Source: a virus
Virus record (IMG/VR): IMGVR_UViG_3300046535_002009
Coordinates: 46,061-110,060 of that record
DNA: 64,000 nt
Reading direction: 5' to 3' (one strand)
Numbering within the stretch: position 1 is the first letter of the stretch; every line of letters begins with the position of its first letter. The translations under genes and the position numbers were made by a program. The notes under the pieces were generated by a model. That model did not search any database. It had not been told where the DNA came from and worked only from the letters and a program-made list of their open reading frames with translations. Below are positions 3,656-46,270 of this stretch, one piece after another.

Positions 3656-4239
3656 TAGGCCTCCTCGCTGAGAATGCGTACGAGGTCGACAATGGCCGCG
3701 CTAGACAGGTGCTTCCGCAGGACGCGCGCCGTGGCGTCAGTGTCCTCCACCGGCACGCTGACTGCTCGCCTCCGGAAGCCCGCCTGCACCATGGCGGCGT
3801 GCGCGGACAGGTGCCCCGCGAGGACCTCGGCATGCAGCTCGGGGGCGTCCTTGCGGAGGCGGCGAAGGGCCGAGGTCTGAGAGTTCCCGTCCGGCTGGGC
3901 AAGGTTGACATTGTCACCCTTGCTTCGGTCGCCCCCGTGCGGAGCCTGAAGGGCCTGGTCGAGCAGGTCGAGCGCCACCGGATCGTCCGCGACCACCCGC
4001 TGGACGAGCGCCACCGACGCCCCGAGCCCCTTCAGCGGCGGCGTGGTCACAAAGTCGGCGAAGCTCGCGTGCTCCACCAACTCGCCCCGCACGGTGACGA
4101 AGGACCGCCAGGACCCATCAGCGAGCAGCCGGCGCAGGAGCTCCGGAGCGTTCTCCAGCCCGCTCCCGCCCCGCTCCAGCGCAGAGGACAGCGCCTCAAC
4201 GAGGGTTCCCCGTGCGCGCCCCTCCTCCCGCGCGGTCAC
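3655..4239 (-). CDS. Hypothetical protein with HGGDRS motif and helical C-terminal domain (second gene of helicase operon)
   Basis: GTGA coupling to the helicase stop; ALRRLRKDAPELHAEVLAG...AGFR. Confidence 0.8.
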   Translation of the reverse strand: MTAREEGRARGTLVEALSSALERGGSGLENAPELLRRLLADGSWRSFVTVRGELVEHASFADFVTTPPLKGLGASVALVQRVVADDPVALDLLDQALQAPHGGDRSKGDNVNLAQPDGNSQTSALRRLRKDAPELHAEVLAGHLSAHAAMVQAGFRRRAVSVPVEDTDATARVLRKHLSSAAIVDLVRILSEEA

Positions 4240-6161
4240 TGAGCCTCCCGAAGCATCTGCTCCACGAATTCCAGTCCGCGCTGCAGCTGCTGGACGCTCG
4301 CGTCAGCGCGCTTCCGCACGCCCATGACCTGGTTCACCCGCCACTGCAGCTCCGGGTGCTCCAGCCCAAGCTTGAACACCGCGTGGCGCGAGCGCTTCGT
4401 CAGCTGGTCGGCCAAGGCCTTCCGCCTCTTGTGCAGGGGCTCGTCCGCGGCCCCGATCGCCACCCTGCTGCCCTGCGGCGGGATGGGCATCGGCACCGTG
4501 CCGACCTTGGTCAGCTCGCCGAGCTCCTCGCGGACGAGCTTGCGCATCGAGGCGAGCACGCTCGGCGGGAAGTCGTGCTTCTTAAGCAGTTCCTCCGCGC
4601 GCTCGTTCTCCTCCACGGTCCACTCGGTGCCGGCATGGATCGCGCCGTGGAACGTGGGCTGGGACGCGGCGAGGGGGATCCGGGCGAACAGGTCCAGCAT
4701 CTGTTGGCCGTTGCCGTCGCTCAGCTCGCGCTCGATCTCCTCCTCCTGGAGGTCGAGCTCGTGCCGGATCTCCTGCTCGATCTGCGCCGCCATGATCCGG
4801 AGGCCCGAGAGCGCTGGCGCGAACACCGTGGCGATCTGCTCGTCAGCCTTGCCTTGGCGCCGGACGAACCGGCCGACCGCCTGGCGGAAGAACATCTCCG
4901 TCTTCGTCTTCGTGGCGTACACCCCGAGGGCCAGGCGCGGGACGTCGACGCCTTCCGACACCATCCGGACAGCGACCAGCCAGCGCTGGCTGCCCTCGGA
5001 GAACCGGTCGATGCCGAGCTTCGCCTCGGGGCCGTCCTCGGAGAGCACCACGACGGGGTCCTCGCCGGTGATGTCCTTCAGTATCTTGGCGTAGGCCTTC
5101 GCCTGCGGGGCCCGGTAGGCGATGACCAGGCCGCCAGCCCGCGGCGCCTCCTCCCGCATCGCCGTGAGCGTGCTGTCCGCCTTCAGTAGCAGGCCCTTCA
5201 TCCAGCCCGTGGCCGGGTCCAGCGCGGTCTCCAGGACGGCGGACACGTCGCCGCGCTGCAGTTCGGCCGACAGGTTGGCGCTGGAGGTCACCGACCCGGA
5301 GTCCATCCACTTCATCTCGCCGTCGTAGAAGTGGAAGTCGACCTGGCGGCAGACGTCGTCCCGGATGGCCTGGCCATAGCTGTATGTGTAGTCAGCGATA
5401 GAGCGCGGCACTCCGTCGCTGTCCTTCTCATACCGCACGAAGGGGATCGGGTTGTTGTCCGACCGGAACGGCGTGCCGGACAGGGCCAGGCGGCGCGACG
5501 CCTCGGAGAAGGCGTGCTTGACCGCGGCACCCCACGCCTTCTCATCGCCGGCATGGTGGACCTCGTCGAGGATCACCAGGGTCTTCTGCTGGCAGCCGAG
5601 GCGGTGGAGGTCAGGCTGCGAGGCGACCTGGGCATAGGTGACGGCCGCGCCGCGGTAGTCCGCCGGGTTCTCCAGGCCGTCGCTGTTCTTCGTCGTGGGG
5701 TCGATCTCGAAGCCGCACTCGTGTGCGGCCGTCGCCCATTGCATCTTGAGGTGCTCGCTCGGCACGACGATGACGATGCGCCTGACCACCCCGCTGTCCA
5801 TCAAGTCGCTGGCTAGCCGGAGCGCGAACTTGGTCTTCCCGGCGCCCGGGGTGGCGACCACGAGGAAGTCCCTGGCATTGCGCGTGACATAGGTGGTCAG
5901 GGCAGCGCGCTGCCATTCGCGGGGGTCGGGGCCAGTCCATGCCATGTGCGTCGAGCCCTTCTTCAGGTTGCAGTCCGGGCAGAGCGCTTGCCCGTTGATC
6001 ACGTCAGTAGGGCCGCCGGCAGACCATGGGGTGATGTGGTCGCCGTGCCAGCCCGGGAGGAGCCGGGTCCCGCACTTCGTGCAGGTGCCACCCGAGGCGA
6101 GGTACATCGCCACGCGCTCGGAAGAGTTGAACCGGCGGCGGGTGGGGTCCGGAGTCACCAC
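4236..6161 (-). CDS. HNH endonuclease fused to SF2 DEAD/DEAH-box (type III Res-like) helicase
   Basis: N-terminal CTKC..DHITPWSAGG..N..ALCPDCN HNH; Walker A ATPGAGKT, DEVHH, SGTP, MVSEGVDVP, QAVGRFVR. Confidence 0.92.
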   Translation of the reverse strand: MVTPDPTRRRFNSSERVAMYLASGGTCTKCGTRLLPGWHGDHITPWSAGGPTDVINGQALCPDCNLKKGSTHMAWTGPDPREWQRAALTTYVTRNARDFLVVATPGAGKTKFALRLASDLMDSGVVRRIVIVVPSEHLKMQWATAAHECGFEIDPTTKNSDGLENPADYRGAAVTYAQVASQPDLHRLGCQQKTLVILDEVHHAGDEKAWGAAVKHAFSEASRRLALSGTPFRSDNNPIPFVRYEKDSDGVPRSIADYTYSYGQAIRDDVCRQVDFHFYDGEMKWMDSGSVTSSANLSAELQRGDVSAVLETALDPATGWMKGLLLKADSTLTAMREEAPRAGGLVIAYRAPQAKAYAKILKDITGEDPVVVLSEDGPEAKLGIDRFSEGSQRWLVAVRMVSEGVDVPRLALGVYATKTKTEMFFRQAVGRFVRRQGKADEQIATVFAPALSGLRIMAAQIEQEIRHELDLQEEEIERELSDGNGQQMLDLFARIPLAASQPTFHGAIHAGTEWTVEENERAEELLKKHDFPPSVLASMRKLVREELGELTKVGTVPMPIPPQGSRVAIGAADEPLHKRRKALADQLTKRSRHAVFKLGLEHPELQWRVNQVMGVRKRADASVQQLQRGLEFVEQMLREAQ

Positions 6162-26954: not shown

Positions 26955-27839
26955 TCACGCGGCGCGTGTGCGTCGGCGGAGTTTGCGCTCGCGGGCCGCG
27001 TCGCGGACGGCGCGGCGGCAGCGCGGGCACGTCGGTGTGCCGATCTGGGTGTGGTCGTAGTAGCCGCCGGGGGTGCCGCAGCGGGCGGTCCAGTCCGGGG
27101 CGGCGGCGGGGTCGTCGATGGTGTCGTCGTCCCAGGCGAGGGGGACGGCCCAGGCGTGGCGGGCGGCGATGGCAAGGGCACCGGTGCGGTCGCGGGTGCG
27201 GACGCCGTGTTCCGCGGGGTCTGCGGCCCACAGCCGGTCGTACAGCTCGTGGACGAGCCGGGCCCGGCTGGAGGTGACACGGGGTCGGCGGCCGTGGGCG
27301 AGGTGCCACAGCTCTTCGCCGTGGGTTCCGCCGAGCCGGGCGAGGACGCGGATGGGCCAGCCGGAGGCGACGAGCGCCTGGACGCGCCGTCGGGAGCCGG
27401 TGCCGTCGACGACGGCTCGGCCGCCGGGCGGCACGCGGGGGATGGCGACGGAGCGGACGGCCCGGGCGTTCTCCTCCCGCATGCGGACCGAGGGCCGTTG
27501 GGCGCCGGCGCGAACGAGGAGTCGGCGCACGACCTTCTCGCTGACGGCGGCCTGCGCTGCGATCTGCTGGTAGGTCATGCCGGCGCGGACGAGGGCCTGC
27601 GCGTGGAGGCGGACGGGCTCCGCGGAAACGTAGGGCTGCCAACGGCCGTAAGCGACCTGGCGGCGCTTGGTGGCGGACCACGCGGTGGAAGCGAGCGTGC
27701 AGCGGCGGCAGCGGCAGCCGTGGTGGGTGTAGGTGGAGTGGCGACCGTGGGTGAGCTGTTCGGTGGGGTTTCCGCCGGTGACGGTGAGGGTGGAGTTGTC
27801 GGTCACTGCGGTCGCCTCTCGGTGGTGCGGGTGGTTCAT
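26955..27839 (-). CDS. HTH paralog 1 (zinc finger + HTH + shared domain + zinc finger)
   Basis: HG..STY.HHGCRCRRC; GSRRRVQALVASGW; WAVPLAWDDDTIDDPAA. Confidence 0.85.
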   Translation of the reverse strand: MNHPHHREATAVTDNSTLTVTGGNPTEQLTHGRHSTYTHHGCRCRRCTLASTAWSATKRRQVAYGRWQPYVSAEPVRLHAQALVRAGMTYQQIAAQAAVSEKVVRRLLVRAGAQRPSVRMREENARAVRSVAIPRVPPGGRAVVDGTGSRRRVQALVASGWPIRVLARLGGTHGEELWHLAHGRRPRVTSSRARLVHELYDRLWAADPAEHGVRTRDRTGALAIAARHAWAVPLAWDDDTIDDPAAAPDWTARCGTPGGYYDHTQIGTPTCPRCRRAVRDAARERKLRRRTRAA

Positions 27840-29116
27840 GCAGCAGCTGCGGTTGTGCGCGTCTCAACGGAGCGGCACCGGGCGCAGAGCGGGGTGCCGG
27901 TGAGCCGGTGGAGTGCCGGTCCGCGTGGTCGGCCGCAGTGGCCGGTGGAGTCGGGGCTGGCTGCGGGGTCGTCGATGGTGTCGTCGTCCCACGCGAGGGG
28001 GACGGCCCACTCGGCCCGGGTGGCCCGGTCGCGGGCGAGGGCCGCGCGGTCGGCGGGCACGCCGTGCCGGGTCGGGTCCTGGTCCCAGAGGCGGTTGTAG
28101 AGCGCGGCCACCGATTCGTTGGAGGTGAATGCCGGGTTGTCGCCCAGGAGGTTGGTGCGCAACTCGCTCGGCGGGCAGCCGAGGCGGGCGGCGAGGTGCG
28201 GGATCGGCCAGCCGCCGAGGACCAGGGCCTGCAGGCGCCGCTGGGAGCCGATCGCGGAGAGCGTGCGCGACGGCCGCTCGGGCTCGGGCTGGCCTGGCCG
28301 GACCGCCATGAGCTTCTGGGCGTTGGAGGCCCGGAGCTGCTTGGCGGGTTGCCGGCCGGAGCACGGACGGCCGTAGATGAGGTACTCGACGGTGCCGTGG
28401 CTGACGCCGGCGGCGCGCGCGATGGCCTTCGCGCTCATGCCGCCGGAGCGAAGGAGTTCGACGTGGGCGCGCGCCGGTTGTGCGTCGACCATCGTGGGGC
28501 GGCGCGTCTGTGCGGCAGCGGCGGGGGCGGCCGTCCTCAGTGGGGCGGGCTCTGCGGAGGCGGAGCGGCGTGACTCCTGGTCACGGGTGGACCGGCAGAC
28601 CTCGCAGTACCGGACGGTTCCGTCGTCGCGGAAGCGGCCGTGGACGGCCAGGTCGTGGCCGTGCTTGCAGCGTTCGACCCGGCGGCGGATGCCGCGGACC
28701 TCTGCGAGGACCTGGCGGCACTTGTGCCGGGTCTCGAAGTCGTCCATGTGGTCGGGGGAGATGCAGGCGCGGTCACCGCAGCCGGGCCGTGTGACGCCGG
28801 TGGGCCAGCGGCCGTGCCTGATCTTGAAAGCGACACGGCGGGCCGTGTACTCGCGGCCGGCATGCCGCAGAATTGGGCTGTTGTCGGCGTTCGTGGTGGG
28901 ACCGGCCCAGTACCGGTGGCCGTCCGGCCCTTCCTCACAGAGCGCCCACCACGCCGCTTCGAGGGTCGTAGTGGTGCGGTGGCTGACGGGCAGGCCCATG
29001 TCGGCGCGGAGCGCTGCCACCGACGTGGCGTGGGTGCGCAGATGGCGGGCAACGGACCGGTTCGACCATCCGGCCGCGATCAACTCTCGGGCCTGCTCGG
29101 CCTTCTGCGCCTTCAC
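27836..29116 (-). CDS. HTH paralog 2 (HTH + degenerate HNH + zinc finger + shared domain)
   Basis: CGDRACISPDHM, CKHGH..CEVC; GSQRRLQALVLGGW; WAVPLAWDDDTIDDPAA. Confidence 0.85.
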   Translation of the reverse strand: MKAQKAEQARELIAAGWSNRSVARHLRTHATSVAALRADMGLPVSHRTTTTLEAAWWALCEEGPDGHRYWAGPTTNADNSPILRHAGREYTARRVAFKIRHGRWPTGVTRPGCGDRACISPDHMDDFETRHKCRQVLAEVRGIRRRVERCKHGHDLAVHGRFRDDGTVRYCEVCRSTRDQESRRSASAEPAPLRTAAPAAAAQTRRPTMVDAQPARAHVELLRSGGMSAKAIARAAGVSHGTVEYLIYGRPCSGRQPAKQLRASNAQKLMAVRPGQPEPERPSRTLSAIGSQRRLQALVLGGWPIPHLAARLGCPPSELRTNLLGDNPAFTSNESVAALYNRLWDQDPTRHGVPADRAALARDRATRAEWAVPLAWDDDTIDDPAASPDSTGHCGRPRGPALHRLTGTPLCARCRSVETRTTAAAA

Positions 29117-29913
29117 TCCTGTGCTCCCTTCCAGCTGGCGGCCTTCCAGCGCTCGATGGTTCGTTCGGCGACGCCGACGCGCGCGCCGATGGCGGCCGAG
29201 GTGAGTCCGCGGCGGTGGAGGCGGCGTGCCTCCGCGATCCGCTCCGCGCGGGTGGTGCCCTCCTCCGCGGGCACCTCGGCCGGGTCGGGCTCGGCGGTGT
29301 CCGGACGGGCAGCCGGGTCGTCGATGTCGGCGCCCCACGCCAGGGGCCCGTGCCATCCGGCTCTGGCGGCCTTCATGCGGGACCGGGTCGAGGGTCCAGG
29401 TACCAGCGCCCACTGCCGGTAGAGGGCTGTGATTGCCCGCGCGGTGTCGATGTGGACCCGGGGGTTCGGGCGCTGGTTGGGGATGCCGTTGGTGATGCGG
29501 CTGATCGACGTCTCGTCGATGGGCAGCCGGCTGGCCAGCAGCGGGCGGGTGTAGCCGAAGGCGATGAGCGCCCGGAGGCGGCGTTGACTGCCGGTGGCGT
29601 CGACGAAGAACGTGACTGGCGTGTTGGGGAGTTGTGCCTGCTCGATGCGGCGGGCAACGCTCCGGTGAGTGGTGGGGTTCTCGTTGTTGGCCAGCTCGGT
29701 GATCTGCGAACGTGCGACGCCGGTCGCTTCGGCGATGGCGCTGACGGTGTGGCCGGCGTCGACCCAGGTCCGCACGCGTTCGACGGTGGGGCCAGCAGGG
29801 ATGCGCCGCTTGCCCTCCTTCGAGGTCCTGTATCGCCATGACTTGCAGTAGCGGCGGTTGTACTCCCGAGACCGGCCGGTGGCAGGGGCGGGCGCCTGCT
29901 CCAGGACGGTCAT
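29113..29913 (-). CDS. HTH paralog 3 (HTH + shared domain + C-terminal HTH)
   Basis: GSQRRLRALIAFGY; WHGPLAWGADIDDPAA; IGARVGVAERTIERW. Confidence 0.85.
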   Translation of the reverse strand: MTVLEQAPAPATGRSREYNRRYCKSWRYRTSKEGKRRIPAGPTVERVRTWVDAGHTVSAIAEATGVARSQITELANNENPTTHRSVARRIEQAQLPNTPVTFFVDATGSQRRLRALIAFGYTRPLLASRLPIDETSISRITNGIPNQRPNPRVHIDTARAITALYRQWALVPGPSTRSRMKAARAGWHGPLAWGADIDDPAARPDTAEPDPAEVPAEEGTTRAERIAEARRLHRRGLTSAAIGARVGVAERTIERWKAASWKGAQE

Positions 29914-36074: not shown

Positions 36075-36263
36075 CTATGCCGCCGTGAGCTGGGCGGTCT
36101 GTCGTGCGGTGCGCTTGGCCATCACTCGCTCCATCGCGGGGGCGAGGACGGTGCGGAGTTCGGCGAGGAGTTCGGGCGTGGGCGGCGGAGCTGCTGCAAC
36201 TGCGCAGCGAATTTCGGCCACAGTCGCTTCGCCGAGTAGGGCGAGTCGCTGAGCCCTCGTCAC
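36075..36263 (-). CDS. Small hypothetical protein after Cro
   Basis: GTGA coupling; AAAPPPTPE. Confidence 0.6.
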   Translation of the reverse strand: MTRAQRLALLGEATVAEIRCAVAAAPPPTPELLAELRTVLAPAMERVMAKRTARQTAQLTAA

Positions 36264-36475
36264 TTCGCTTCTGCCGATGCGTAGTAGTCGTCCAGCTTCT
36301 GCTTGTACGCGTCGGCGATCTTTCGGACGGTGGCCGTCGTGGGCTCGGTCTTGCCCCGCAGAAGGCGGCTGACGTGCCCACGATTAAGGCCGGTGCGTCG
36401 GGCGATGAGGGTTGCGCTGGTGTCACCCGCACCCTTGGTGGTGTCCCGGAAGAGGGCGCTGTCGAAGTCGGACAT
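36260..36475 (-). CDS. Cro-like HTH regulator
   Basis: IARRTGLNRGHVSRLLRGKTEPT; GGAGGTGA RBS; divergent from the repressor. Confidence 0.85.
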   Translation of the reverse strand: MSDFDSALFRDTTKGAGDTSATLIARRTGLNRGHVSRLLRGKTEPTTATVRKIADAYKQKLDDYYASAEAK

Positions 36476-36708: not shown

Positions 36709-37167
36709 ATGGACGGTGCCCACCGCATGGAACCAGGACCCCAGGCCCTCGCCGACTACGTGCGCGAACACGCGCCGGCGGCCGGCTACACGCTCACCGA
36801 GTGGGGCGAGCCGGCACGCCTTGCCCGCGACTCCGGCATGGACACTGGCACCCTGACGCGCATCCTCAAAGGTGAACGCGTCCCGCGCCCCGCACAGCTC
36901 TGGCCGCTGAGCCAGGCACTCGGCCGGCCCTTCATGGAGGTCATGGTCGTATCCGGAACAGTTCCCCCCGAATCGGTCGCGCATATGCCACAACCCGCAG
37001 TAGCATCAACGCCTATCACTGCTGATGCTCTGGCAGATGAGTGGGGCGTCCACGCCGAAGGCGACCGCGCATACATCGCGGAGACCCTCAAGCGCCTGCG
37101 CGAACACGCCAAGTCCCAGAAGGCCCGACAGAAGCCGGAGCACGGGAGCAGCGCCGCGAACGGATAA
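36709..37167 (+). CDS. Immunity repressor (XRE HTH)
   Basis: ARLARDSGMDTGTLTRILKGERVP; lies between integrase and Cro. Confidence 0.8.
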   Translation: MDGAHRMEPGPQALADYVREHAPAAGYTLTEWGEPARLARDSGMDTGTLTRILKGERVPRPAQLWPLSQALGRPFMEVMVVSGTVPPESVAHMPQPAVASTPITADALADEWGVHAEGDRAYIAETLKRLREHAKSQKARQKPEHGSSAANG

Positions 37168-37180
37168 CTGGGGGCCGCCC

Positions 37181-37720
37181 GTGAAGAAGTACCGCTCCGC
37201 CATCGCTATTGCCGCCGCTGCTGTGGCCGGCATGCTGCTGACGGCCGAGGCCCCCATCGTGGGCGGCGCCATCCTCGGCGCCGCCGCGACCGCCATCGTC
37301 ACGCTCGCCCTCCAACTTCGGCAGGCCGACGCCCGCCGCACGGAGTACACCGCGCGCGAGGCAGCCCTGCGCGCCAGCGAACAGCGCGTGGCCGCCGACG
37401 ACTTCCGCCTCCGCATCGCCCTCCGCGAGCAGGAAGCTCTCCGTAGGCGCTACGACGCCGGACTGGGCACCCTCGTCTCCCAGCGCGAGCGTCTGCGACT
37501 CAACATGGAGGAGCGCCTCGTCTCGGAGATGGCAGCCGTCAACGCCCGGCACGCCCACGAGCTGGCCCGCGCGAAGGCCGACGCGTTCGAGGACGGCGCC
37601 ATGGCCGTCATCTACGACCGGCTCGGCGCCCCCATCGCCCCCGTCGACACCCCGGCAGTCAGCGCCGACGTGATCCCCCTCGCCGGCCGCCGCCCGGCCG
37701 CCGCCACGCCTTCACGCTGA
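37181..37720 (+). CDS. Membrane-anchored coiled-coil protein co-oriented with the repressor
   Basis: Two N-terminal hydrophobic helices. Confidence 0.65.
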   Translation: MKKYRSAIAIAAAAVAGMLLTAEAPIVGGAILGAAATAIVTLALQLRQADARRTEYTAREAALRASEQRVAADDFRLRIALREQEALRRRYDAGLGTLVSQRERLRLNMEERLVSEMAAVNARHAHELARAKADAFEDGAMAVIYDRLGAPIAPVDTPAVSADVIPLAGRRPAAATPSR

Positions 37721-37721
37721 C

Positions 37722-39254
37722 CTACGTCGCGACGGGCTCCAGGACCTTGGGCCACTCCTCGAACCCAGGCTGCCCGAAGAAGATCAGGTTCACCCGGGGC
37801 CCAACCGGCTGGCCGTGACCCTTCCTCAACGCCGGCAAGACCTCGACCCGCAGGACCTTGCGGATGACGTGGCGCTTCTGCTCAAGGACGAGCTCCTCCT
37901 CGTCGTTCCACATCTCGTCCAGCGCATCCGGATCCATCCCGATGAGACGGTCCAGCAGCGGGTCACCCACCGACAGAAGCCCCTTCACGATGGCCTCGGA
38001 CGCCCGGGCCAGCGGGATCAGCCGCTGCTCCAGCTCGGCGAGCGAGGCGACGGTCAGGCCGGGCAGGCCGGTCACCGGGTCGAACTCGGTCGCCCGCGCC
38101 CGCGCGTCTCGGAGCTGCTCGGTGATCGCCTTCAGCTTGGCCCGCTCCCGTTCCAGTTCACCGCTCGACGCCTGTCGGCGCATCGCCGCGGCTGCCTTCT
38201 CGGAGGACAGCCACTGCAGCAGGGCCTCCTCGACGTAGGCCTCCAGGAGCTGCTTCATGATGGACAAGTGCTCCACGCGGCACCGGTAGAGCGCGCCACG
38301 GCGGTACTTGGGCTGTGCCAGCCGCACCGTCATCGTGCTGTTGCGGATGTCCACGTCGGCACGGCAGAGCGAGCAGAGCGCGATCCCGGACAGCAGGTGC
38401 TCGACGCCGGTCGTGTGGGTCGTCCTGCGGTCCGGGTCGTCGAGCATCCGCTGGACACGCCAGAAGACGTCCTCGTCGACGAGCCCCTTCCAGGCAGCCG
38501 GATACTCGGTGTCGTGGTGGACTCGGATCCCGATGTACGCCCTGTTCTGCAGGATCGCGCGGATGCCCTGGTCCGTCATCAGCGGGCGGCGGGGCAGCAT
38601 GAAGGCGACGAGGCGCTTGATGGAGATCTTCTGGTCCGCCATGTTGAACAGCTTGACGAGTACGGGCGCTTCGTCCGGGTGGGCGACCTGCCCGAGAAGT
38701 TCGCCAGTGTCCGGGTCATAGACCCGCTTGAAGCCGAAAGGCGGGGTGCCGGTCATCCAGCCCCGCTGGGCGCTGAGGCGTGCGGTCCGGACGTTGCGGG
38801 CGATGATCGTGTCGCCCTCGCCCTCGGACTCCACGGCGTCCCGGGCGGTCTCGCGCCGGTCGGATGCCTTGGTGAGGTCGTAGACCCGGCCGTCGTAGCA
38901 CCAGAGGACGCCGGTCTCCATGCACAGCGCGCGGAGCCTCACGTACCCGTCGAGCGTGCGGTTCGTGCGGGACCTCTCGGCGTACACGATCACGTCGATT
39001 TTGCCCGCGCGGACGTCTTCGACCATACGCTCGTACTCGTCACGGACCTTCGTGGCGCGACTGCTTGCCGAACGGTCGCGGTCCTCGTAGAAGTCGACAA
39101 TCTCCCAGCCGCGCTCGTTGCACTCGGCGCGGCACTCGGCGAACTGGTCCTTGATGGATCGTCCGCGGTAGCGCGGGTCTCGAGATGCCCGACCATACAC
39201 AGCGGCCCGCAGCGGGCGAGTCGCCTGCGCGGGCACCGAGTACAGGTAGTTCAT
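37722..39254 (-). CDS. int: Large serine recombinase (integrase)
   Basis: YGRAS catalytic motif, S..DQ, SR..R, PFGF recombinase domain, LLSGIALCSLC zinc ribbon, coiled coil. Confidence 0.95.
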   Translation of the reverse strand: MNYLYSVPAQATRPLRAAVYGRASRDPRYRGRSIKDQFAECRAECNERGWEIVDFYEDRDRSASSRATKVRDEYERMVEDVRAGKIDVIVYAERSRTNRTLDGYVRLRALCMETGVLWCYDGRVYDLTKASDRRETARDAVESEGEGDTIIARNVRTARLSAQRGWMTGTPPFGFKRVYDPDTGELLGQVAHPDEAPVLVKLFNMADQKISIKRLVAFMLPRRPLMTDQGIRAILQNRAYIGIRVHHDTEYPAAWKGLVDEDVFWRVQRMLDDPDRRTTHTTGVEHLLSGIALCSLCRADVDIRNSTMTVRLAQPKYRRGALYRCRVEHLSIMKQLLEAYVEEALLQWLSSEKAAAAMRRQASSGELERERAKLKAITEQLRDARARATEFDPVTGLPGLTVASLAELEQRLIPLARASEAIVKGLLSVGDPLLDRLIGMDPDALDEMWNDEEELVLEQKRHVIRKVLRVEVLPALRKGHGQPVGPRVNLIFFGQPGFEEWPKVLEPVAT

Positions 39255-39287
39255 GGCCAGTCAGCATAGGGGGCTACCCCTGACAGC

Positions 39288-39339
39288 AATACCCCTCTTT
39301 AACAAATCTGCGTGCGCCGCTTTTGGAAAAGGGGGTATT
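39288..39339. other. Putative intact attP
   Basis: 52-bp imperfect inverted repeat (14/19 arm match) centred on gcg-TG-cgc, immediately 5' of int. Confidence 0.7.
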
Positions 39340-39381
39340 TAAACGTGCAGGTCAGGTCGATAGGGCGCGGTACGCAGCACA

Positions 39382-39415
39382 AAGGGCCGTTCACCTGGCG
39401 GGGTGAACGGCCCTT
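39382..39415. terminator. Intrinsic terminator-like hairpin
   Basis: Perfect 14-bp stem AAGGGCCGTTCACC/GGTGAACGGCCCTT. Confidence 0.75.
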
Positions 39416-39425
39416 CGGGCACCGG

Positions 39426-39833
39426 TCAGGTCGTGCCGGTGGAGCACACGAAGATCATGACGGCCAGCGATCCGCACAGCCGGTTGACGAGTTCGCCGAG
39501 CTGCGCATGGGAGGCCTGGACGAGGTCCACGCTCTCGGACCAGTCGAGCTCGTCGAGCTGCTTGCGCGGTGCACAGCCGGACAGCCTGATCATGTCGGCC
39601 AGGGCCCCACGGAGGCGCTCGACCAGATGGATCAGATCCCCATCGTCCGCGGAGTGGAGGTCGGTCCTTTCGGCCTCGCGGAGGTCGGCTCGCGCCATGG
39701 CGATCCGCTCGACGGCGAAGTCCGGGCGCGGGAAGGTCGGGCGTTCTGTGGTCACCGGGCTGAAGGGCTGGAAGCCGACGGGGGAGGCGAGCGCGGCCGA
39801 GCCGCGCTGAGGGAACGGCAGAGGATTCGTCAT
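39426..39833 (-). CDS. Hypothetical protein with duplicated helical motif
   Basis: GGAG RBS; DL..A....L..LV.RL.G.LA.MI occurs twice. Confidence 0.65.
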   Translation of the reverse strand: MTNPLPFPQRGSAALASPVGFQPFSPVTTERPTFPRPDFAVERIAMARADLREAERTDLHSADDGDLIHLVERLRGALADMIRLSGCAPRKQLDELDWSESVDLVQASHAQLGELVNRLCGSLAVMIFVCSTGTT

Positions 39834-39852
39834 TCGGACTCTCCGTCCCCGA

Positions 39853-39898
39853 CGGCCGGACCGTTGCAGGTGCGCTTACGCGCCTGGCGGCCCGGCCG
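39853..39898 (-). terminator. Long stem-loop between the peptide gene and the downstream gene
   Basis: CGGCCGG...CAGGTGCG-CTTA-CGCGCCTG...CCGGCCG. Confidence 0.5.
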
Positions 39899-39909
39899 AC
39901 GTGCTGGGG

Positions 39910-40089
39910 TCAGCCGCCCCAGTTCGTGTCCATCGGCTGGTACGGAGTCGTGTCCGTGTCGCCCGGAGTGGGCACGGCGATCTTCACGGTCGGCGAACTT
40001 GCGGAGCTCAGCTCCTCGGCCTGCGCGGCGGCGGCCGGCAGGGCAATCAGCGCGGCTGCAGCGAGCAGCACGCTTGCGGTCTTCTTCAT
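39910..40089 (-). CDS. 59-aa secreted peptide precursor MKKTASVLLAAAALIALPAAAAQA-EELSSASSPTVKIAVPTPGDTDTTPYQPMDTNWGG
   Basis: Hand-translated; AGAGGAG RBS; Sec signal with AQA cleavage site; TTGACA upstream at 40166-40171. Confidence 0.85.
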   Translation of the reverse strand: MKKTASVLLAAAALIALPAAAAQAEELSSASSPTVKIAVPTPGDTDTTPYQPMDTNWGG

Positions 40090-40356
40090 GATTCTCCTCT
40101 GTGTTCCCTCCGGTGCCGCTGGGGCGGCACTGGGTGGTCATAGGACATGTGGCGACGCGCGCCCGTGTCAACATCCGCCCCGTTTCGGTTGAGTGACAGA
40201 CTGCCGATGCCTTCGCGCGGAAGGCGTGGGGCCCGGTCCGACGTGGTTGATGGTTCATCCACCCGCTCCGCAACGATCGCGCACGGATAGTTGCCGGACA
40301 AGACGATCTGTGGTGCATTTATCTGCGACTGCATAAAGACGCAGAAGGGCTGAAGA

Positions 40357-41322
40357 GTGAGCGACCTTGGTGTCGTGCCGGCGAGCGCGGTGATCCCTGA
40401 CGATGCACGGGAGTTGTACGCCCGGATGGCTGGCTTGGGGGAGCAGCCCGGGCCCGATGACGACGCATCGCTGCATCTGCTGCTCAGCCTTGGCCTGGTC
40501 CGGCAGGACGTCAGCGAGGGCTACCTGCTCGTCGATCCGCAGTACGTGGGCGCTCGCTGGGAGGGCTCGTTCTACACCAGCGCGGCACGGATGCTGGAGC
40601 AGGCGGCGACCGTCTCCGAGGCGCTTCGCCCCCTTCGGCATGCGTTCGACAATCGTTCGTCCGAGTCTGCCGGCCTGATCGAGTACCACCGGGGGTCGGA
40701 GGCCATCAACTGGCGGGTGGGGCAGGTACTCGGAGGCTGTTCGAGTGAGCTGCTGGTGTGCCAGCCCGGTGGTCCGCGGCGGCCGGAGATCCTCCAGGAG
40801 ACCGCACAGCGGGACCTGGAGACGCTGAACCGTGGCGTGGCGATGAAGACGATCTACCACGACCACGCGCGAGCTGGCGCGTCCATCGACGACTGGGTCA
40901 AGGTCATGACCGACGCCGGGGCGGAGATCCGGACCCTCGACGAGAAGTTCGAGCGGATGTTCATCATCGACCGGCGGATCGCGGTCGTCCCGGGGGACGA
41001 CATCCTCACGACGAGCTCGGACGCAGTCGCCTACATCGTGAACGACAGTGGGGTGGCACGGTTCCTGGCCCGCCAGTTCGAGCGGGACTGGAACCGTGCC
41101 CGCGCTTGGAGCGAGACGGCGAAGGCGGAGGTGTCGCTGACCGGTCGGCAGGCCGCCGTCCTGCGAGGGCTCGCGGCGGGTGACGGCCAGCAGCTCATTG
41201 CCCGCCGCCTGAAGATCAGCCAGCGGACGATGGCTGACACGATCTCCGAGCTGAAGGCGCTGTACAACGTCACGTCGCTGTTCCAGCTTGCGTGCAGCTG
41301 GACCTCGGCGGGTGGCGTGTAG
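40357..41322 (+). CDS. Transcriptional regulator: TrmB-like wHTH + PLD-like sensor domain + LuxR HTH
   Basis: LLSLGLV; ELLVCQPGGPR..L..RGVAMKTIY...RMFIIDRRIAVVP..FERDW; LTGRQAAVLRGLAAG..IARRLKISQRT. Confidence 0.85.
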   Translation: MSDLGVVPASAVIPDDARELYARMAGLGEQPGPDDDASLHLLLSLGLVRQDVSEGYLLVDPQYVGARWEGSFYTSAARMLEQAATVSEALRPLRHAFDNRSSESAGLIEYHRGSEAINWRVGQVLGGCSSELLVCQPGGPRRPEILQETAQRDLETLNRGVAMKTIYHDHARAGASIDDWVKVMTDAGAEIRTLDEKFERMFIIDRRIAVVPGDDILTTSSDAVAYIVNDSGVARFLARQFERDWNRARAWSETAKAEVSLTGRQAAVLRGLAAGDGQQLIARRLKISQRTMADTISELKALYNVTSLFQLACSWTSAGGV

Positions 41323-41324
41323 CG

Positions 41325-41537
41325 TCAGCTCTCCCCGCCTCCTCTCAGGGCCGCGGCCAGCCGATGGGCTGTCTCGGCAGTCGCGGAGCCGAGGTTCACC
41401 AGGGAGAAGTCGGACATGATTCCGATCATGTCCACGCCCAGCGACGGCAGGATGATGCCCTGCTCCCTGAGCGCCTCTCGCAGATCCTCGACTGCGTCCT
41501 GGGCTTCCTTCCATGCATCCGGTACCGACTCAGCCAC
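41325..41537 (-). CDS. Small Streptomyces-type protein (GIxLPSL family), copy 1
   Basis: LREALREQGIILPSLGVD...LVNLG..TAHRLAAAL. Confidence 0.75.
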   Translation of the reverse strand: MAESVPDAWKEAQDAVEDLREALREQGIILPSLGVDMIGIMSDFSLVNLGSATAETAHRLAAALRGGGES

Positions 41538-41593
41538 GTCGTTGCTTCTCTCTGTACTTGGCCTGGATACATCGCATACCCAGGCTGATTGAT

Positions 41594-41610
41594 TTACCAC
41601 GCGGTGGTAA
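41594..41610. promoter_or_regulatory. Palindromic operator between divergent genes
   Basis: TTACCAC-GCG-GTGGTAA. Confidence 0.5.
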
Positions 41611-41646
41611 GGACTGAAAGGGGTTATGGGCCCTAGTCGTGGAGGG

Positions 41647-41886
41647 GTGCCCACCGATGATCTTCCCGACTACGTCCGACATCACCGCTGGCTGCTCGGC
41701 AGCCGACTGCGCCAGACGCGCCTAGAACAGGAGTTGACCCAGGAGGACCTGGCCCGCATGACCGGCGTGGACAGCAAGACCATCAGCCGGACCGAGAACG
41801 GGCACCACAACGTGGGGATCGATCTGGTCGCACGGCTGGCGCATGCCCTCGGCGTTCCGAGCTGGACGCTGTTCGAGGAACGCTGA
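41647..41886 (+). CDS. XRE-family HTH regulator
   Basis: LRQTRLEQELTQEDLARMTGVDSKTISRTENG. Confidence 0.88.
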   Translation: MPTDDLPDYVRHHRWLLGSRLRQTRLEQELTQEDLARMTGVDSKTISRTENGHHNVGIDLVARLAHALGVPSWTLFEER

Positions 41887-41908
41887 CCCAGGGCCGGTTG
41901 GCTACCGG

Positions 41909-42115
41909 CTAGCTTGCGGGCCGGAGAGCCTCGGCCAGGAGGTGGATTTCGCGCGCGACCGCGCGCCCCAGGTCGACCATCCACTCCCCCGGTCGCGCCC
42001 TGGACGGACGCACCTCCAGGGACGGTAGGACGATCCCATGTTCAGACAAGGCGGACTTCAGCTCACGGAGCGCACGTTCGGCCTCCACCTTGCTGGTCGG
42101 CTCGTCGGCGGTCAC
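41909..42115 (-). CDS. Small GIxLPSL family protein, copy 2
   Basis: LKSALSEHGIVLPSLEV...MVDLG...LAEAL. Confidence 0.7.
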   Translation of the reverse strand: MTADEPTSKVEAERALRELKSALSEHGIVLPSLEVRPSRARPGEWMVDLGRAVAREIHLLAEALRPAS

Positions 42116-42336
42116 CGGCGGATCTGCCTGTTCCGGTAGGCCTCGTCGAACGAGTCCCAGACCACGAGGTGGCCGTCCTCGGCGTACGGATGGCCGTCGG
42201 GCTGAAGGACGTACCAGCCGCGACCCGGTCCTCTGTAGGGCTCGACGCCCTGGCCCTCGATCTTCTCGGGCAGCACCGGGGCCGGCACGGGCTGGCAGAG
42301 GCGTCGGCTGTCGGTGCGTCGAGGCTCGATCATCAC
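42112..42336 (-). CDS. Hypothetical protein
   Basis: Coupled; HLVVWDSF. Confidence 0.5.
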   Translation of the reverse strand: MMIEPRRTDSRRLCQPVPAPVLPEKIEGQGVEPYRGPGRGWYVLQPDGHPYAEDGHLVVWDSFDEAYRNRQIRR

Positions 42337-42566
42337 AGGCCACCGTCCCGGCCCGCCGTGGCTGCGGCGCGGCGGGCGACGAGGCAGCGGGTGCAGGTCA
42401 CGGTCTCCCAGTCGTGCGCGACGCCGCACACGCCGGGCGTGGAGACGACGCCGTCCGGGTGGAGCGGCGGGTCGGCGTCACCGCAGTGAAAGCACGCCCG
42501 GCCGTGGAGGCGCGCGGGGCTGATGTCCTCGTCGACCAGCGGCAAGGAACGGTCGGTATCTGTCAC
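42333..42566 (-). CDS. Small zinc-finger protein
   Basis: GRACFHCG...CTRC; inverted repeat GTGCTACAG-C-CTGTGGCAC upstream (42599-42617). Confidence 0.6.
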   Translation of the reverse strand: MTDTDRSLPLVDEDISPARLHGRACFHCGDADPPLHPDGVVSTPGVCGVAHDWETVTCTRCLVARRAAATAGRDGGL

Positions 42567-42622: not shown

Positions 42623-43807
42623 TCAGACAGCTTTCGCCCAGCGGGCGAAGGCGAGGAGCCGCTCGTCGCGGCCACGGTCGAGTCGGACCATCGTGGCCAG
42701 CTCTGCCCGTACCTGGCCGTGCTCACGGACGTGCTGGGGCGCGATCGCCCGGGCGGCCTGGAGGGAGTCGAGGGCGTGGCCGGGCCGCCCGAGCTGCATC
42801 TGGGCTCGGCCCAGGTCGATGTAGTAGTGGCTGCGCCGCTCGGCGCCGAGGCTCGGAGGCGGGGCCCAGGAGCGGGCGGCGGCGACGGCGCCTAGGAGGT
42901 CCTGCGGCTCTCCGAGTTCCACGGCGACCGACAGGCGGTGAATCTCGACGGAGTGGGGGCCCACCGCGGTGCCGTCGTAGAGACGCTCCGGAAACGTCCG
43001 GGCCAGCGTGCCGGCCTCGGTCAGGTGGGCGCGCGCGGTGTCTGCGTCTCGCATGCGGCCGGCGACGACGGCGGCTCGCATGTGCAGCGCGGCCGCGGCT
43101 GCGGCGAGGGGACCGGTGCGAGGGGAAGGCATCCGGTCGGCGGCGGCCTGAAGAGCGCGCAGGCCGGGGGCGAGCTGGCCGCTGGCGAAGAACACCTCCG
43201 TCCTGACGTATGCGGCGGCGGCGGCCAGCGCGGGGTCCTCGGCGATGGAGGAAGCCCAGCGCATCAGCTCGACGAGCCTTCCCGACAGGTCCCGGTATCC
43301 GTGCTTGTAGGCGACGGCGTCCGCGCTGCGGACCGCGAGCGCTAGCAGGTGCGCGGCCCGTTGACGGTCGGCGCCGGCGGCCTGGTCGACGGCGCGGAAC
43401 AGCTCGGCCAGGAGCGGCGCGATCGTCTCTGCAAGCTGGCCGTAGCGGGAGTTGACCCGGTCGTCTGTGGCCGCATGGACGGCGGCTGCGAGCTGGGCGA
43501 GGGGCCGGACAGGGCCGTCGTCCGGCAGGTCGTAGGCGGCGATCACGGACTGGAGGCCGGGGATTGCGAGGTGCACTCGGCTCTCGGTGCGGCCGGGGCC
43601 GCCGAGGAGTTCGTCCGCCGTGGTCTTGAGGTGGCGAGCGAGCGCGTCCAGCACGCTGTCGCTCGGGGACCGCTCGCCGTCCTCGACCTTGCGGATCATG
43701 CTGGTCGAGACGCCGGATCGCTCCTCCAGCGCCCGGCGGCTCAGACCGCACGCGCTCCGGGCGGCCTTGATGCGCAGTCCGACTTCGGTGGCGATACGAC
43801 CGGGCAT
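42623..43807 (-). CDS. XRE HTH regulator with TPR-like helical C-terminal domain
   Basis: RIKAARSACGLSRRALEERSGVSTSMIRKVEDGER; Ala/Leu-rich helical repeats, ERRSHYYIDLGRA. Confidence 0.88.
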   Translation of the reverse strand: MPGRIATEVGLRIKAARSACGLSRRALEERSGVSTSMIRKVEDGERSPSDSVLDALARHLKTTADELLGGPGRTESRVHLAIPGLQSVIAAYDLPDDGPVRPLAQLAAAVHAATDDRVNSRYGQLAETIAPLLAELFRAVDQAAGADRQRAAHLLALAVRSADAVAYKHGYRDLSGRLVELMRWASSIAEDPALAAAAAYVRTEVFFASGQLAPGLRALQAAADRMPSPRTGPLAAAAAALHMRAAVVAGRMRDADTARAHLTEAGTLARTFPERLYDGTAVGPHSVEIHRLSVAVELGEPQDLLGAVAAARSWAPPPSLGAERRSHYYIDLGRAQMQLGRPGHALDSLQAARAIAPQHVREHGQVRAELATMVRLDRGRDERLLAFARWAKAV

Positions 43808-43818
43808 GGGCGAGGGCT

Positions 43819-43876
43819 CCGTTCCGTGCGACACCACGACGGTACCGGCGGGCCCGGACGTGGTGTGCCGGAACGG
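43819..43876. promoter_or_regulatory. Inverted repeat flanking a -10 TACCGT upstream of the XRE-TPR gene
   Basis: CCGTTCCG..ACACCACG / CGTGGTGT..CGGAACGG. Confidence 0.5.
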
Positions 43877-43910
43877 CCCGGCGGCTCGGGAGTGCCCAGG
43901 CGGCGGCTGG

Positions 43911-44555
43911 TCACTGGGCTGAGGTGATCACCTCTGCGAGGTCGTGCAGCGAGTTGACACGCCAGTCGGCGGCCGCCGCCTCCGAGCTGTCCGCCCATAG
44001 GTGCCCGAGTGGCCCGCGGCGCAGGTGGGCCGCGCGCATGCCGGCGGCCAGTGCGGGGTGGATGTCGTTCGCCGGGTGGTCGCCGACGTAGAGGATCTCG
44101 TGGCGCTGGCCCGGTGCCCAGTCGGCGACCCGGTCGAAGAACTCCGGCGACGGCTTGGCTACTCCCCACTCGGCAGAGGTGACGATGCCGTCCGCGGGTA
44201 GGTTCATTGCGCGCAGCAGGTTCCCGGCCCGGTGGTTCTGGTTGCCGGCGATGCCTACCCAGACGCCGATGTCGCGCAGCCGTTGTAGGGCCGGTCGGAC
44301 GTCGGGGTAGAGGTCGGTCCGGTCGAGGAACTCGTCCTGGCCTGCTGCCCGGCGTGCCTCCCACTCTTCGGCCACGTCGCACCCGGGCTTGATGATGCGG
44401 ATTGCGTCCGCGTTGTCGCGGCCCTGGGCGACGACCGCGCCCACGAGGGCGGACATGGTGTGTGCGGGGACGCCGAGCCAGCGGGCCCAGTCAGCCCAGT
44501 AGCGGGCGTCGCTGACGAGGGTTTCCCCGATGTCGAGGACCACGGATTTGATCAC
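43911..44555 (-). CDS. HAD-superfamily hydrolase
   Basis: VLDIGETL, GN, KP, YVGDHPAND motifs. Confidence 0.88.
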   Translation of the reverse strand: MIKSVVLDIGETLVSDARYWADWARWLGVPAHTMSALVGAVVAQGRDNADAIRIIKPGCDVAEEWEARRAAGQDEFLDRTDLYPDVRPALQRLRDIGVWVGIAGNQNHRAGNLLRAMNLPADGIVTSAEWGVAKPSPEFFDRVADWAPGQRHEILYVGDHPANDIHPALAAGMRAAHLRRGPLGHLWADSSEAAAADWRVNSLHDLAEVITSAQ

Positions 44556-44868: not shown

Positions 44869-45426
44869 CTATTTGCGGTTCTTCACCGCGGGGGTGGGGG
44901 TGGCCTGGCTGCACTGGTACTGCGGAGCCGTGGGGTCGAAGGGGTCGGCGCGGGTGCAGCTGTAGGTCTGGCCGCCGGTGGTGAACGTCCAGCTGTAGGG
45001 CGGCTGGCCGGCGGTGCCGGGCGGTCCTTGTGGCCCGGGTGAGCCGTCGGCGCCGGGGCTTCCTGCCGGGCCGGGGAGGGTGGAGTTGGTGCCGTCGCGG
45101 CCAGCGGGGCCGCTGGGTCCGGTCGGGCCGGTCGGTCCTGGGATCGGGGTGGGGGTGGGTGCGTCGCGGCCGGCCGGGCCCTGGGGTCCCTCCGGTCCCT
45201 GGGGGCCGGTGAGTCCGGCGTCGCCGCGGCTGCCGGGCGGGCCGGCGACGGGGGATGCGCCGAGTTGCTGGACCTGGCGGGCGAGGCCGTCGCGGGCCTC
45301 GTTGGCGGAGCGGAGGTCGGCGGACAGCTGGACGGTCTGGACGGCAAGCCATGCCATGAAGATCAGCATCAGCACCGCGGTGAAGAGGGCCACGGTCTCG
45401 GCCCGGGCCGGGAATCGGCGGTTCAT
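44869..45426 (-). CDS. Membrane-anchored collagen-like protein (lysis module)
   Basis: N-terminal TM, coiled coil, Gly-X-Y repeats, C-terminal Cys pair. Confidence 0.82.
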
Positions 45427-45871: not shown

Positions 45872-46270
45872 TCACTCGCTCCGGGTGTAGGTGACGGCGG
45901 CCGGTGCGGGCGGTGCGACCGGGGCGGTGATCTGGGTGCGGGTGTACAGGGCTGCGGCGATGGCCACGGCGGACATGACGAGGGCCTGCAGGTCGGCGCT
46001 CCAGTGGAGGCCGTATCCGACGGCCAGGGCGATGGCTGCCTGGAAGAGGCCGAGGACGGCGGCGATGCCACCGTCGTGGGCGATGCGGGCGATGATGACG
46101 CCGATGATCGCCGCGGCGAAGGCGTTGATCGCGGACTGCTGGTCGACGGTGACGTGTGCGCCGAACGCGACGGCGAGCTTGACGATGACGGCGACGAGGG
46201 CGAGGTAGGCGGCGGGTTCGCGGCCGAGGATGGTGGTGACGGGGTTGCGGTCGGGGGTGGTGGTGCCCAT
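45872..46270 (-). CDS. Holin
   Basis: ILGREPA; 4 TM; RTQITAP; follows the endolysin. Confidence 0.8.
   Translation of the reverse strand: MGTTTPDRNPVTTILGREPAAYLALVAVIVKLAVAFGAHVTVDQQSAINAFAAAIIGVIIARIAHDGGIAAVLGLFQAAIALAVGYGLHWSADLQALVMSAVAIAAALYTRTQITAPVAPPAPAAVTYTRSE

Follow-up and report, generated by a model that had tools for sequence, protein, structure and literature searches.

The window analysed here is a 64,000-nucleotide (nt) stretch of viral DNA (IMG/VR record IMGVR_UViG_3300046535_002009, positions 46,061 to 110,060; the last 64 kb of a 110-kb 'linear' record) that carries two divergent genes of interest: one for a 59-amino-acid (aa) peptide precursor (39910-40089, minus strand) and one for a 321-aa candidate receptor-regulator (40357-41322, plus strand), separated by 267 base pairs (bp). 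We give about an even chance to the reading that the pair, here carried by a phage, belongs to an extensive and as yet unnamed family of actinobacterial two-gene modules (peptide plus regulator), which would signal via an exported and re-imported peptide. Full-text literature searches found no published description of the peptide-regulator pair. A model working from the letters of the window (hereafter the original prediction) had proposed that the two genes form an analogue of arbitrium, the AimP-AimR-AimX peptide communication system of Bacillus SPbeta-like phages.

The evidence that carries this reading is the constancy of the pairing. The closest homologue of the regulator is 74% identical, and its sole phage-database match is gp29 of Streptomyces phage Chymera (29% identity). 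Divergent from Chymera gp29 lies gp30, a 59-aa protein with a signal peptide extending to AQA and the motif DPGWG both right after the cleavage site and at the C-terminus; beyond gp30 are a small gene, int and an immunity repressor. Loci were collected from species-representative genomes (79) and from IMG/VR (3), and the scans covered 84 loci. Under a strict filter, 58 of the 84 have an open reading frame (ORF) with a signal peptide and a D..W motif no more than 700 bp from the regulator; relaxed start-codon and signal rules add 13 loci, bringing those with an adjacent peptide ORF to approximately 71. The adjacent ORFs are 38-120 aa in length and contain one to six copies of D-x-x-W-x. When signal-peptide ORFs were scanned for with no motif requirement, the one adjacent to the regulator almost always carried D-x-x-W. 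Only three ORFs with both a signal peptide and the motif occur in the remaining flanks (approximately 6.5 kb per locus), two of which look like genuine peptides.

As a hold-out, 39 metagenome loci were retrieved by means of another alignment and show the same pattern: 30 have a peptide and there are no distant matches. Of the nine loci without one, six have at most 334 bp of flank downstream, so that 30 of 33 testable loci are positive. (A metagenome scan with a single regulator protein as the query returned nothing; the alignment query retrieved the loci.) The original prediction had anticipated both signal-peptide ORFs beside regulator homologues and a recurring C-terminal D-x-x-W-G signature. 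Each was found, with almost no such ORFs in distant flanks, and the signature is present beside homologues as distant as that of Chymera.

The family is large and is found mainly outside phages. A profile search of 1.84 billion cluster representatives (clusters at 50% identity) returned 1,610 at E ≤ 1e-30. Regulator homologues occur on 104 plasmid records (Streptomyces, 100; Kitasatospora, 2; Actinacidiphila, 1; Nonomuraea, 1), and a peptide was found on two of the three plasmids inspected. Most members are chromosomal, being located after dnaK-grpE-dnaJ-hspR (a core site) in Kitasatospora and beside PEPCK in Nocardioides; the family is not specific to phages. Annotation of Kitasatospora and Nocardioides loci (L017 and L079) turned up no modifying enzyme, no kinase and no other neighbour in common, and none of the products of the window's XRE-TPR, int and small genes recurs in the flanks of the chromosomal copies. 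What stays constant beside the peptide is the regulator alone. Three Kitasatospora sites carry tandem regulator arrays past hspR: G005:C1:3993473-4001416 (L041/L068), G006:C2:779193-786434 (L012/L071) and G004:C1:4467182-4471229 (L017). Genomes with tandem arrays have 5-17 regulator-family members each.

The peptide ORF of the window has the features of a real gene. A ribosome-binding site read from the sequence, GAGGAG (40094-40099, minus strand), lies 4 nt before the ATG, and GC content by codon position (0.63/0.59/0.86) is like that of real genes in this 71.5% GC window. The precursor begins with MKK, followed by a hydrophobic core of approximately 18 residues and AQA|EE, and has neither a lipobox nor a twin arginine. 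Residues 1-24 (40018-40089) are the predicted signal peptide; a Pro/Thr/Ser-rich linker comes next, and the C-terminus reads MDTNWGG, in which DTNWGG (residues 54-59; codons 39913-39930) is the proposed mature signal. Sec-type signals were called with a heuristic (basic n-region, hydrophobic h-region and AxA site, with no lipobox or RR); by this heuristic, both the window precursor and more than 100 counterpart peptides have the layout of a Sec (SPase I) pre-protein. Scanned in six frames, the 64 kb yields a single ORF that has both a signal peptide and a terminal D..W motif, namely the one described here. The ORF, its strong ribosome-binding site, its Sec signal and its MDTNWGG terminus are therefore as the original prediction described them, the signal being assigned heuristically. 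The peptide does not belong to the WGxxGxxG family NF041742 of NCBIfam (17.1 bits against a cut-off of 35), with which it shares only the terminal WGG; in PHROGs it has a weak match to phrog_542 (E 1.5e-4).

Across the family, only the D and W of the peptides are invariant, and the conserved unit is a penta- or hexapeptide, D-x-x-W-x(-G). Kitasatospora dialects include DISWT, DINWT, DIGWA, DTIWN, DFNWN, DVIWT, DSAWP and DYIWT; Nocardioides and soil metagenome-assembled genomes have D[ST][ST]WG plus a short tail; and the phage dialects are DTNWGG, DSNWGG (L083), DSSWGG (twice in L084 and in L131) and DPGWG (twice in Chymera). In many precursors the motif is present two to six times with unrelated linkers (for example, six copies of PADY[IV]WT, five of ADLIWG and three of ADTVWT). 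Where there are two copies, the first often begins right at the putative cleavage site of signal peptidase, and the last runs up to the stop codon; because these copies are bounded by the AxA cleavage site and the stop codon, the core can be delimited as D-x-x-W-x(-G). A further comparison is provided by L129, a prophage integrated in Kitasatospora: its DTNWGG is identical to that of the window, the other mature residues cannot be aligned, and the two regulators are 51% identical. An exact hexapeptide in an otherwise unrelated mature region is the pattern of a processed short signal and not of a folded small protein.

Nocardioides-type loci L039, L049, L052, L066, L079, L081, L095, L098, L113, L116, L117 and L122, from soil Nocardioides and metagenome-assembled genomes, have tails with Cys pairs, in which the motif comes right after the cleavage site (e.g. 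DSSWGCGGC..., DTSWGCGGYC... and DTTWGCPGC...). These tails hint at a form of the signal that is cyclised or held by a disulfide bridge.

Precursors with multiple cores and an invariant Trp also resemble some precursors of peptides made by the ribosome and modified after translation (RiPPs), and the small ORFs might thus be RiPP-like (e.g. Trp-modified) natural-product precursors with the regulator controlling the pathway. We consider this scarcely probable: no conserved modifying enzyme lies beside the pair in the annotated chromosomal loci, the inspected plasmid records or the phages, and a Sec signal peptide would take the precursor away from cytoplasmic tailoring enzymes.

Peptide and regulator vary together. 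In Kitasatospora, 43 loci represent a single orthologous site with the order dnaK-grpE-dnaJ-hspR, regulator and convergent peptide gene. Regulator identity at this site averages 58% (39-99%), compared to 92% (87-100%) for DnaJ, which is encoded two genes away (41 of the 43 loci). Regulator pairs with the same motif are 87% identical and those with different motifs 57%. In a partial Mantel comparison of regulator and motif distances with DnaJ distance controlled, r is 0.48 (p 2e-4; locus pairs are not phylogenetically independent), and among the domains r is highest for the phospholipase D (PLD)-like domain of the regulator (0.50). For regulator pairs at least 70% identical, a motif change is accompanied by a 3.4-fold increase in substitution rate in the PLD-like domain and an approximately 2-fold increase in the helix-turn-helix (HTH) domains. 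The peptide/receptor co-variation for which the original prediction had proposed a search is thus present at this locus. The pair resembles a fast-evolving unit of the comQXP or agr kind, similar to pherotype diversification, which is not a demonstration of binding.

The regulator combines four segments: an N-terminal winged HTH (wHTH; residues ~9-58), a long helix (61-98), a PLD-like domain lacking HxK (~105-250) and a LuxR/GerE HTH (255-318). Pfam identifies the GerE/LuxR HTH (PF00196) at residues 260-313 (28.4 bits; cut-off 23.5) and Regulator_TrmB at residues 108-253 (E 4e-4), the latter just below the cut-off (20.2 against 22.2 bits). In an AlphaFold2 model (pLDDT 87), the wHTH is followed by a helix of 38 residues, then by an alpha/beta domain and an HTH of four helices. 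With this model as the query, the top Foldseek match is TrmBL2 (5bpd; E 2e-13), followed by the PLD nuclease Nuc, Zucchini and TrmB; a family profile searched against the PDB matches TrmBL2 (E 2e-6; residues 28-247) and NarL/GerE chains (E 9e-9 to 6e-8). The protein thus has both the TrmBL2-type arrangement (wHTH, coiled-coil helix and the N-subdomain of the PLD-like effector domain) and a LuxR/GerE HTH. None of its five His residues is followed by x-K, so the catalytic HxK(x)4D of the phospholipase D superfamily is missing and the domain is PLD-like by fold only. The C-terminal beta-barrel that completes the sugar pocket of TrmB sensu stricto is not found either, residues 255-318 being the GerE/LuxR HTH.

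The architecture outlined in the original prediction is accordingly upheld by Pfam, model, Foldseek and sequence, as is its suggestion of a receptor candidate outside the RRNPP family: there is no Pfam match to TPR, the model has no TPR superhelix, and the fold is TrmBL2/PLD-like plus LuxR. Its further argument, that TrmB-type middle domains are ligand sensors, is weaker than claimed, as TrmBL2, the closest solved relative, lacks the sugar-binding C-terminal subdomain of TrmB. No autoinducer-binding domain was detected in the regulator with Pfam, and its NCBIfam matches are limited to the HTH and fall far below the cut-offs. PHROGs has no family for the regulator. PADLOC returned nothing for the regulator, the peptide or the neighbouring orf135, so this is not a known defence system. 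The model shows no signal peptide or membrane segment; if the regulator is the sensor, the peptide must therefore be re-imported. Co-folding of the regulator alignment with pro-peptide residues 25-59 gave a score of 0.02 which, having no controls, speaks neither for nor against the pairing.

The proposed mechanism would operate as follows. The 59-aa precursor would be exported and cleaved by signal peptidase after AQA24, and extracellular proteases would release the C-terminal DTNWGG, which would accumulate with the density of infected or lysogenic cells. A host oligopeptide permease would then bring DTNWGG back into the cytoplasm, where its binding to the PLD-like domain of the regulator would alter how the regulator binds the 267-bp divergent region and, possibly, DNA at the neighbouring XRE genes.

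A different arrangement would be one in which the regulator merely controls the peptide gene and the peptide acts extracellularly (on a membrane sensor, the envelope or competitors), not as the regulator's ligand. A regulator and its target gene are equally expected to be adjacent and to co-vary, and the TrmBL2-like fold has no known ligand. On the other hand, there is no conserved kinase or membrane partner in the annotated loci, multi-copy short cores are typical of diffusible signals, and a regulator that only binds DNA need not diversify its PLD-like domain in step with a five-residue motif (3.4-fold, against approximately 2-fold for the HTH domains). We regard this arrangement as improbable.

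Several points weigh against the signalling module we favour. Expression, secretion, processing, import and binding of the peptide are all inferred. Since peptide and regulator genes are adjacent, replacement of the whole locus by recombination (linkage alone) could produce the co-variation, and the occurrence of one hexapeptide with regulators only 51% identical means that receptor divergence does not require a change of peptide. The Nocardioides-type motif is at the N-terminus of the mature part with a tail after it, often with Cys pairs, and the active product may differ across the family. TrmBL2 is a chromatin-like DNA binder with no known ligand, and we know of no PLD-like domain that binds a peptide. 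In the tandem arrays, two to six TrmB/LuxR regulator paralogues follow the peptide-linked one without peptide genes to go with them; as 'orphan' receptors, they could eavesdrop on other dialects. Finally, genes adjacent to attP are often lysogenic-conversion cargo, outside the lysis-lysogeny switch.

The phage, prophage and plasmid copies form a recognizable group. In a maximum-likelihood tree, nine of the ten mobile copies (phages, prophages and one plasmid) fall on one side of a branch supported at 98/96; the window groups with L082, then with L083 (DSNWGG) and then with L129 (DTNWGG). All mobile-clade copies with an upstream flank present have the divergent layout (L082 is cut at the contig end), and the phage and prophage copies of this clade have a small XRE-family HTH gene after the regulator; in the window, this gene (41626-41886, plus strand) encodes 86 aa, and none of the phage or prophage copies examined lacks it after the regulator. 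The arrangement peptide <-|-> regulator, small XRE, next to int and/or cI-cro is common to the window, Chymera, L083 and L129. In L131 and L084 the module is at the prophage edge: the L131 peptide gene abuts host sodN, and that of L084 is at the provirus boundary. The chromosomal versions have the convergent layout and lack the neighbours of the phage copies. The expected link to integrases is seen in the phage copies, which adjoin int or immunity genes; most members of the family are chromosomal.

In the window, the module is located between the lysis genes and attP-int-cI/cro, and for this reason a lysis-lysogeny role is proposed. By analogy with arbitrium, the output of the module might bias lysogenisation or prophage induction, a role that we consider possible but doubtful. 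The signalling pair could instead be real but carried as lysogenic-conversion cargo, a private quorum signal expressed by the prophage and controlling orf135 or host behaviour (for instance, development, superinfection or kin recognition between lysogens). The module is proximal to attP, where morons usually sit and a position that suits a moron just as well as a switch, and is the outermost block in the integrated prophages L131 and L084; the majority of the family is chromosomal or plasmid-borne, with no tie to lysogeny; and the peptide operon has its own terminator, which insulates it from int. Synteny with int and cI-cro is nevertheless kept in four phages, and mobile copies invariably come with the XRE gene, as if the module were tied into the regulation of the phage. 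We judge the cargo explanation to be rather unlikely.

The nearest potential competitor for the role of receptor is an XRE-HTH plus TPR regulator (phrog_5823; 42623-43837, minus strand), which is encoded 1.3 kb from the regulator in a cassette with a HAD hydrolase (43911-44555). This protein could read the peptide in an RRNPP-like manner, leaving the TrmB/LuxR protein as an accessory. Its model (pLDDT 92) has an HTH and a TPR superhelix; the top Foldseek match is PlcR-PapR (E 7e-4), followed by ComR, PrgX and Rgg2, and VIA-align gives Z of 15-17 to phage phi3T Rap, RapH, NprR and AimR. It is present in the window, Chymera, L083 and L131. Against this, generic TPR proteins reach equal or better values (Z 18-19), and the protein is missing from all chromosomal peptide loci as well as from L129 and L130. 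The cassette also occurs in phage VWB, which had no regulator match and in which no D..W peptide was found in the 7.5 kb examined. A homologue search returned 563 proteins at E ≤ 1e-10, of which the nearest from Kitasatospora have 62-75% identity, with no peptide-like diversification. We consider it very unlikely that this protein is the reader of the peptide. As an observation in its own right, the XRE-TPR plus HAD cassette (42623-44555, minus strand) corresponds to gp55-gp56 of Streptomyces phage VWB (47% identity for the regulator), and the model points to an RRNPP-like architecture in actinophages.

The closest known system remains arbitrium. Like it, the module of the window belongs to a temperate phage, has a Sec-exported pro-peptide of which a short C-terminal part (6 aa) would be the signal, and pairs the peptide with an adjacent cytoplasmic DNA-binding regulator; a small gene lies downstream of the peptide gene, lysogeny genes are nearby, and different phages have different peptide 'dialects'. 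Unlike arbitrium, the receptor would be a TrmBL2-like protein (wHTH, PLD-like domain and LuxR HTH) with no TPR, the genes are divergent and not co-directional, the motif is D-x-x-W-x with relatives often having several copies per precursor, and the host is an actinomycete. The family is also mainly chromosomal and is known from sequence alone. With the RRNPP systems (Rap-Phr, PlcR-PapR, NprR-NprX, PrgX and Rgg-SHP), the module would share the scheme in which a peptide is exported, processed, re-imported and read by a receptor in the cytoplasm; the genes are likewise adjacent, and homologous systems are likewise spread over chromosomes, plasmids and phages, but neither receptor nor peptide is homologous. 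A small exported pro-peptide encoded next to the receptor marks RRNPP/AimR systems; here such a pro-peptide is conserved beside the candidate receptor, and its short product may be the ligand.

Resemblances to other systems are more partial. The ComQXPA pherotypes of Bacillus also involve a short Trp-containing pheromone and a hypervariable locus between highly conserved flanks, with co-diversification of signal and receptor; There, however, ComQ isoprenylates ComX, and the sensor is the membrane kinase ComP, whereas here there is neither modifying enzyme nor kinase and export would be by Sec. The archaeal regulators TrmB and TrmBL2 have the same N-terminal wHTH, long dimerisation helix and PLD-like alpha/beta domain, but the regulator described here is bacterial, lacks the sugar-binding beta-barrel of TrmB, ends in a LuxR/GerE HTH and is paired with a secreted peptide. 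VqmA-Phi of VP882 and the phage LuxR homologues are likewise phage-borne transcription factors with a LuxR-type HTH, and the regulator, like them, would couple a diffusible signal to phage decisions; those proteins bind small molecules made by the host, while here the peptide is encoded by the phage and the regulator has no autoinducer-binding domain.

Quorum sensing by peptides that are read in the cytoplasm (RRNPP) is seen as a trait of Firmicutes, and Actinomycetota are described as signalling typically with small molecules such as butyrolactones (PMC10075063). Tentatively, and with less than even confidence, we suggest that D-x-x-W-x peptides read by cytoplasmic TrmBL2/PLD-like-LuxR receptors constitute a peptide quorum-sensing language of Actinomycetota, in which private dialects of phages and plasmids set lysis-lysogeny or transfer. 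If the proposed reading is true, a first arbitrium-like system would be known outside Firmicutes, together with a first cytoplasmic peptide receptor that is not of the RRNPP type, and phage-to-phage communication would extend beyond Bacillus. The family would also represent a new signalling chemistry and receptor fold for actinobacteria (at least 1,610 clusters, including the Kitasatospora core genome, Nocardioides, 104 plasmids and several phages). Synthetic pentapeptides would then be simple handles for controlling prophages and plasmids in industrial actinomycetes, and possibly their development or the antibiotics they make, and the system may bear on which extracellular peptides the BldK/Opp permeases of Streptomyces import.

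The divergent intergenic region (40090-40356, 267 bp) is the expected site of both promoters and the operator(s). It contains a block GCAAC-N15-GTTGC (40270-40294) that is common to prophage L129 and is a candidate operator only, CAACGATC, which is common to L083 as well as L129, and a small inverted repeat (40322-40345). Inverted-repeat searches found no operator common to all phage copies, the only match being the block at 40270-40294, shared with L129. A sigma-70 consensus scan of 39200-41700 found no promoter, a result that carries no information, being what one would expect of a high-GC actinomycete.

Downstream of the peptide gene and co-oriented with it is orf135 (39426-39833, minus strand), a near-orphan with one homologue (69% identity) and a possible output gene of the module. 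Between the two is a stem-loop (39850-39901, minus strand; -50.3 kcal/mol, z -3.9) without a U-tract, possibly an attenuator, processing site or stabiliser, that could set the relative expression of peptide and orf135. An intrinsic terminator follows orf135 (39377-39420, minus strand), with a 19-bp stem and a UUUGUG tail (-38 kcal/mol, z -5.5). An AT-rich imperfect palindrome with 25-nt arms (39288-39339) separates this terminator from int and is a candidate attP core for a serine integrase. The integrase itself (37722-39254, minus strand; 510 aa) has the Resolvase catalytic (PF00239; E 1e-13) and Recombinase (PF07508; E 3e-7) domains of a large serine recombinase. The same-strand order hairpin, small gene, terminator and int given in the original prediction was found, while its attP is represented only by this candidate palindrome. 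The immunity region beyond int encodes a Cro-like HTH protein (36260-36475, minus strand) and a CI-like repressor (phrog_3949; 36709-37167, plus strand). Phage genes (tape measure, endolysin, exonuclease and replication initiator) flank int on both sides, so the record is not a prophage integrated via this site.

Between the regulator and the small XRE gene is orf109 (41325-41654, minus strand), a small protein whose C-terminal part recurs in L082, L083 and L129; orf144 (41909-42343, minus strand) is its paralogue. The two share the C-terminal motif ...GI[IV]LPSL... and both adjoin XRE genes, and the C-terminal part occurs twice in L082. Neither has a Pfam, PHROG or PADLOC family.

The closest homologues of the window proteins are from Kitasatospora, and a megablast search of 37000-42000 against phage records gave no match. 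Four rhizosphere metagenome DNA runs contain short, low-depth pieces, some of which are identical to 39300-41400 and others only distantly alike. Two large early-region proteins have HNH endonuclease domains, one fused to a helicase (4236-6161, minus strand) and the other to a DUF (phrog_1590; 27836-29839, minus strand). A 185-aa protein whose G-x-y repeats resemble collagen (44869-45426, minus strand; Pfam Collagen, E 3e-9), encoded between the lysis/tail genes and the HAD/XRE-TPR cassette, is probably a tail-fibre or decoration protein.

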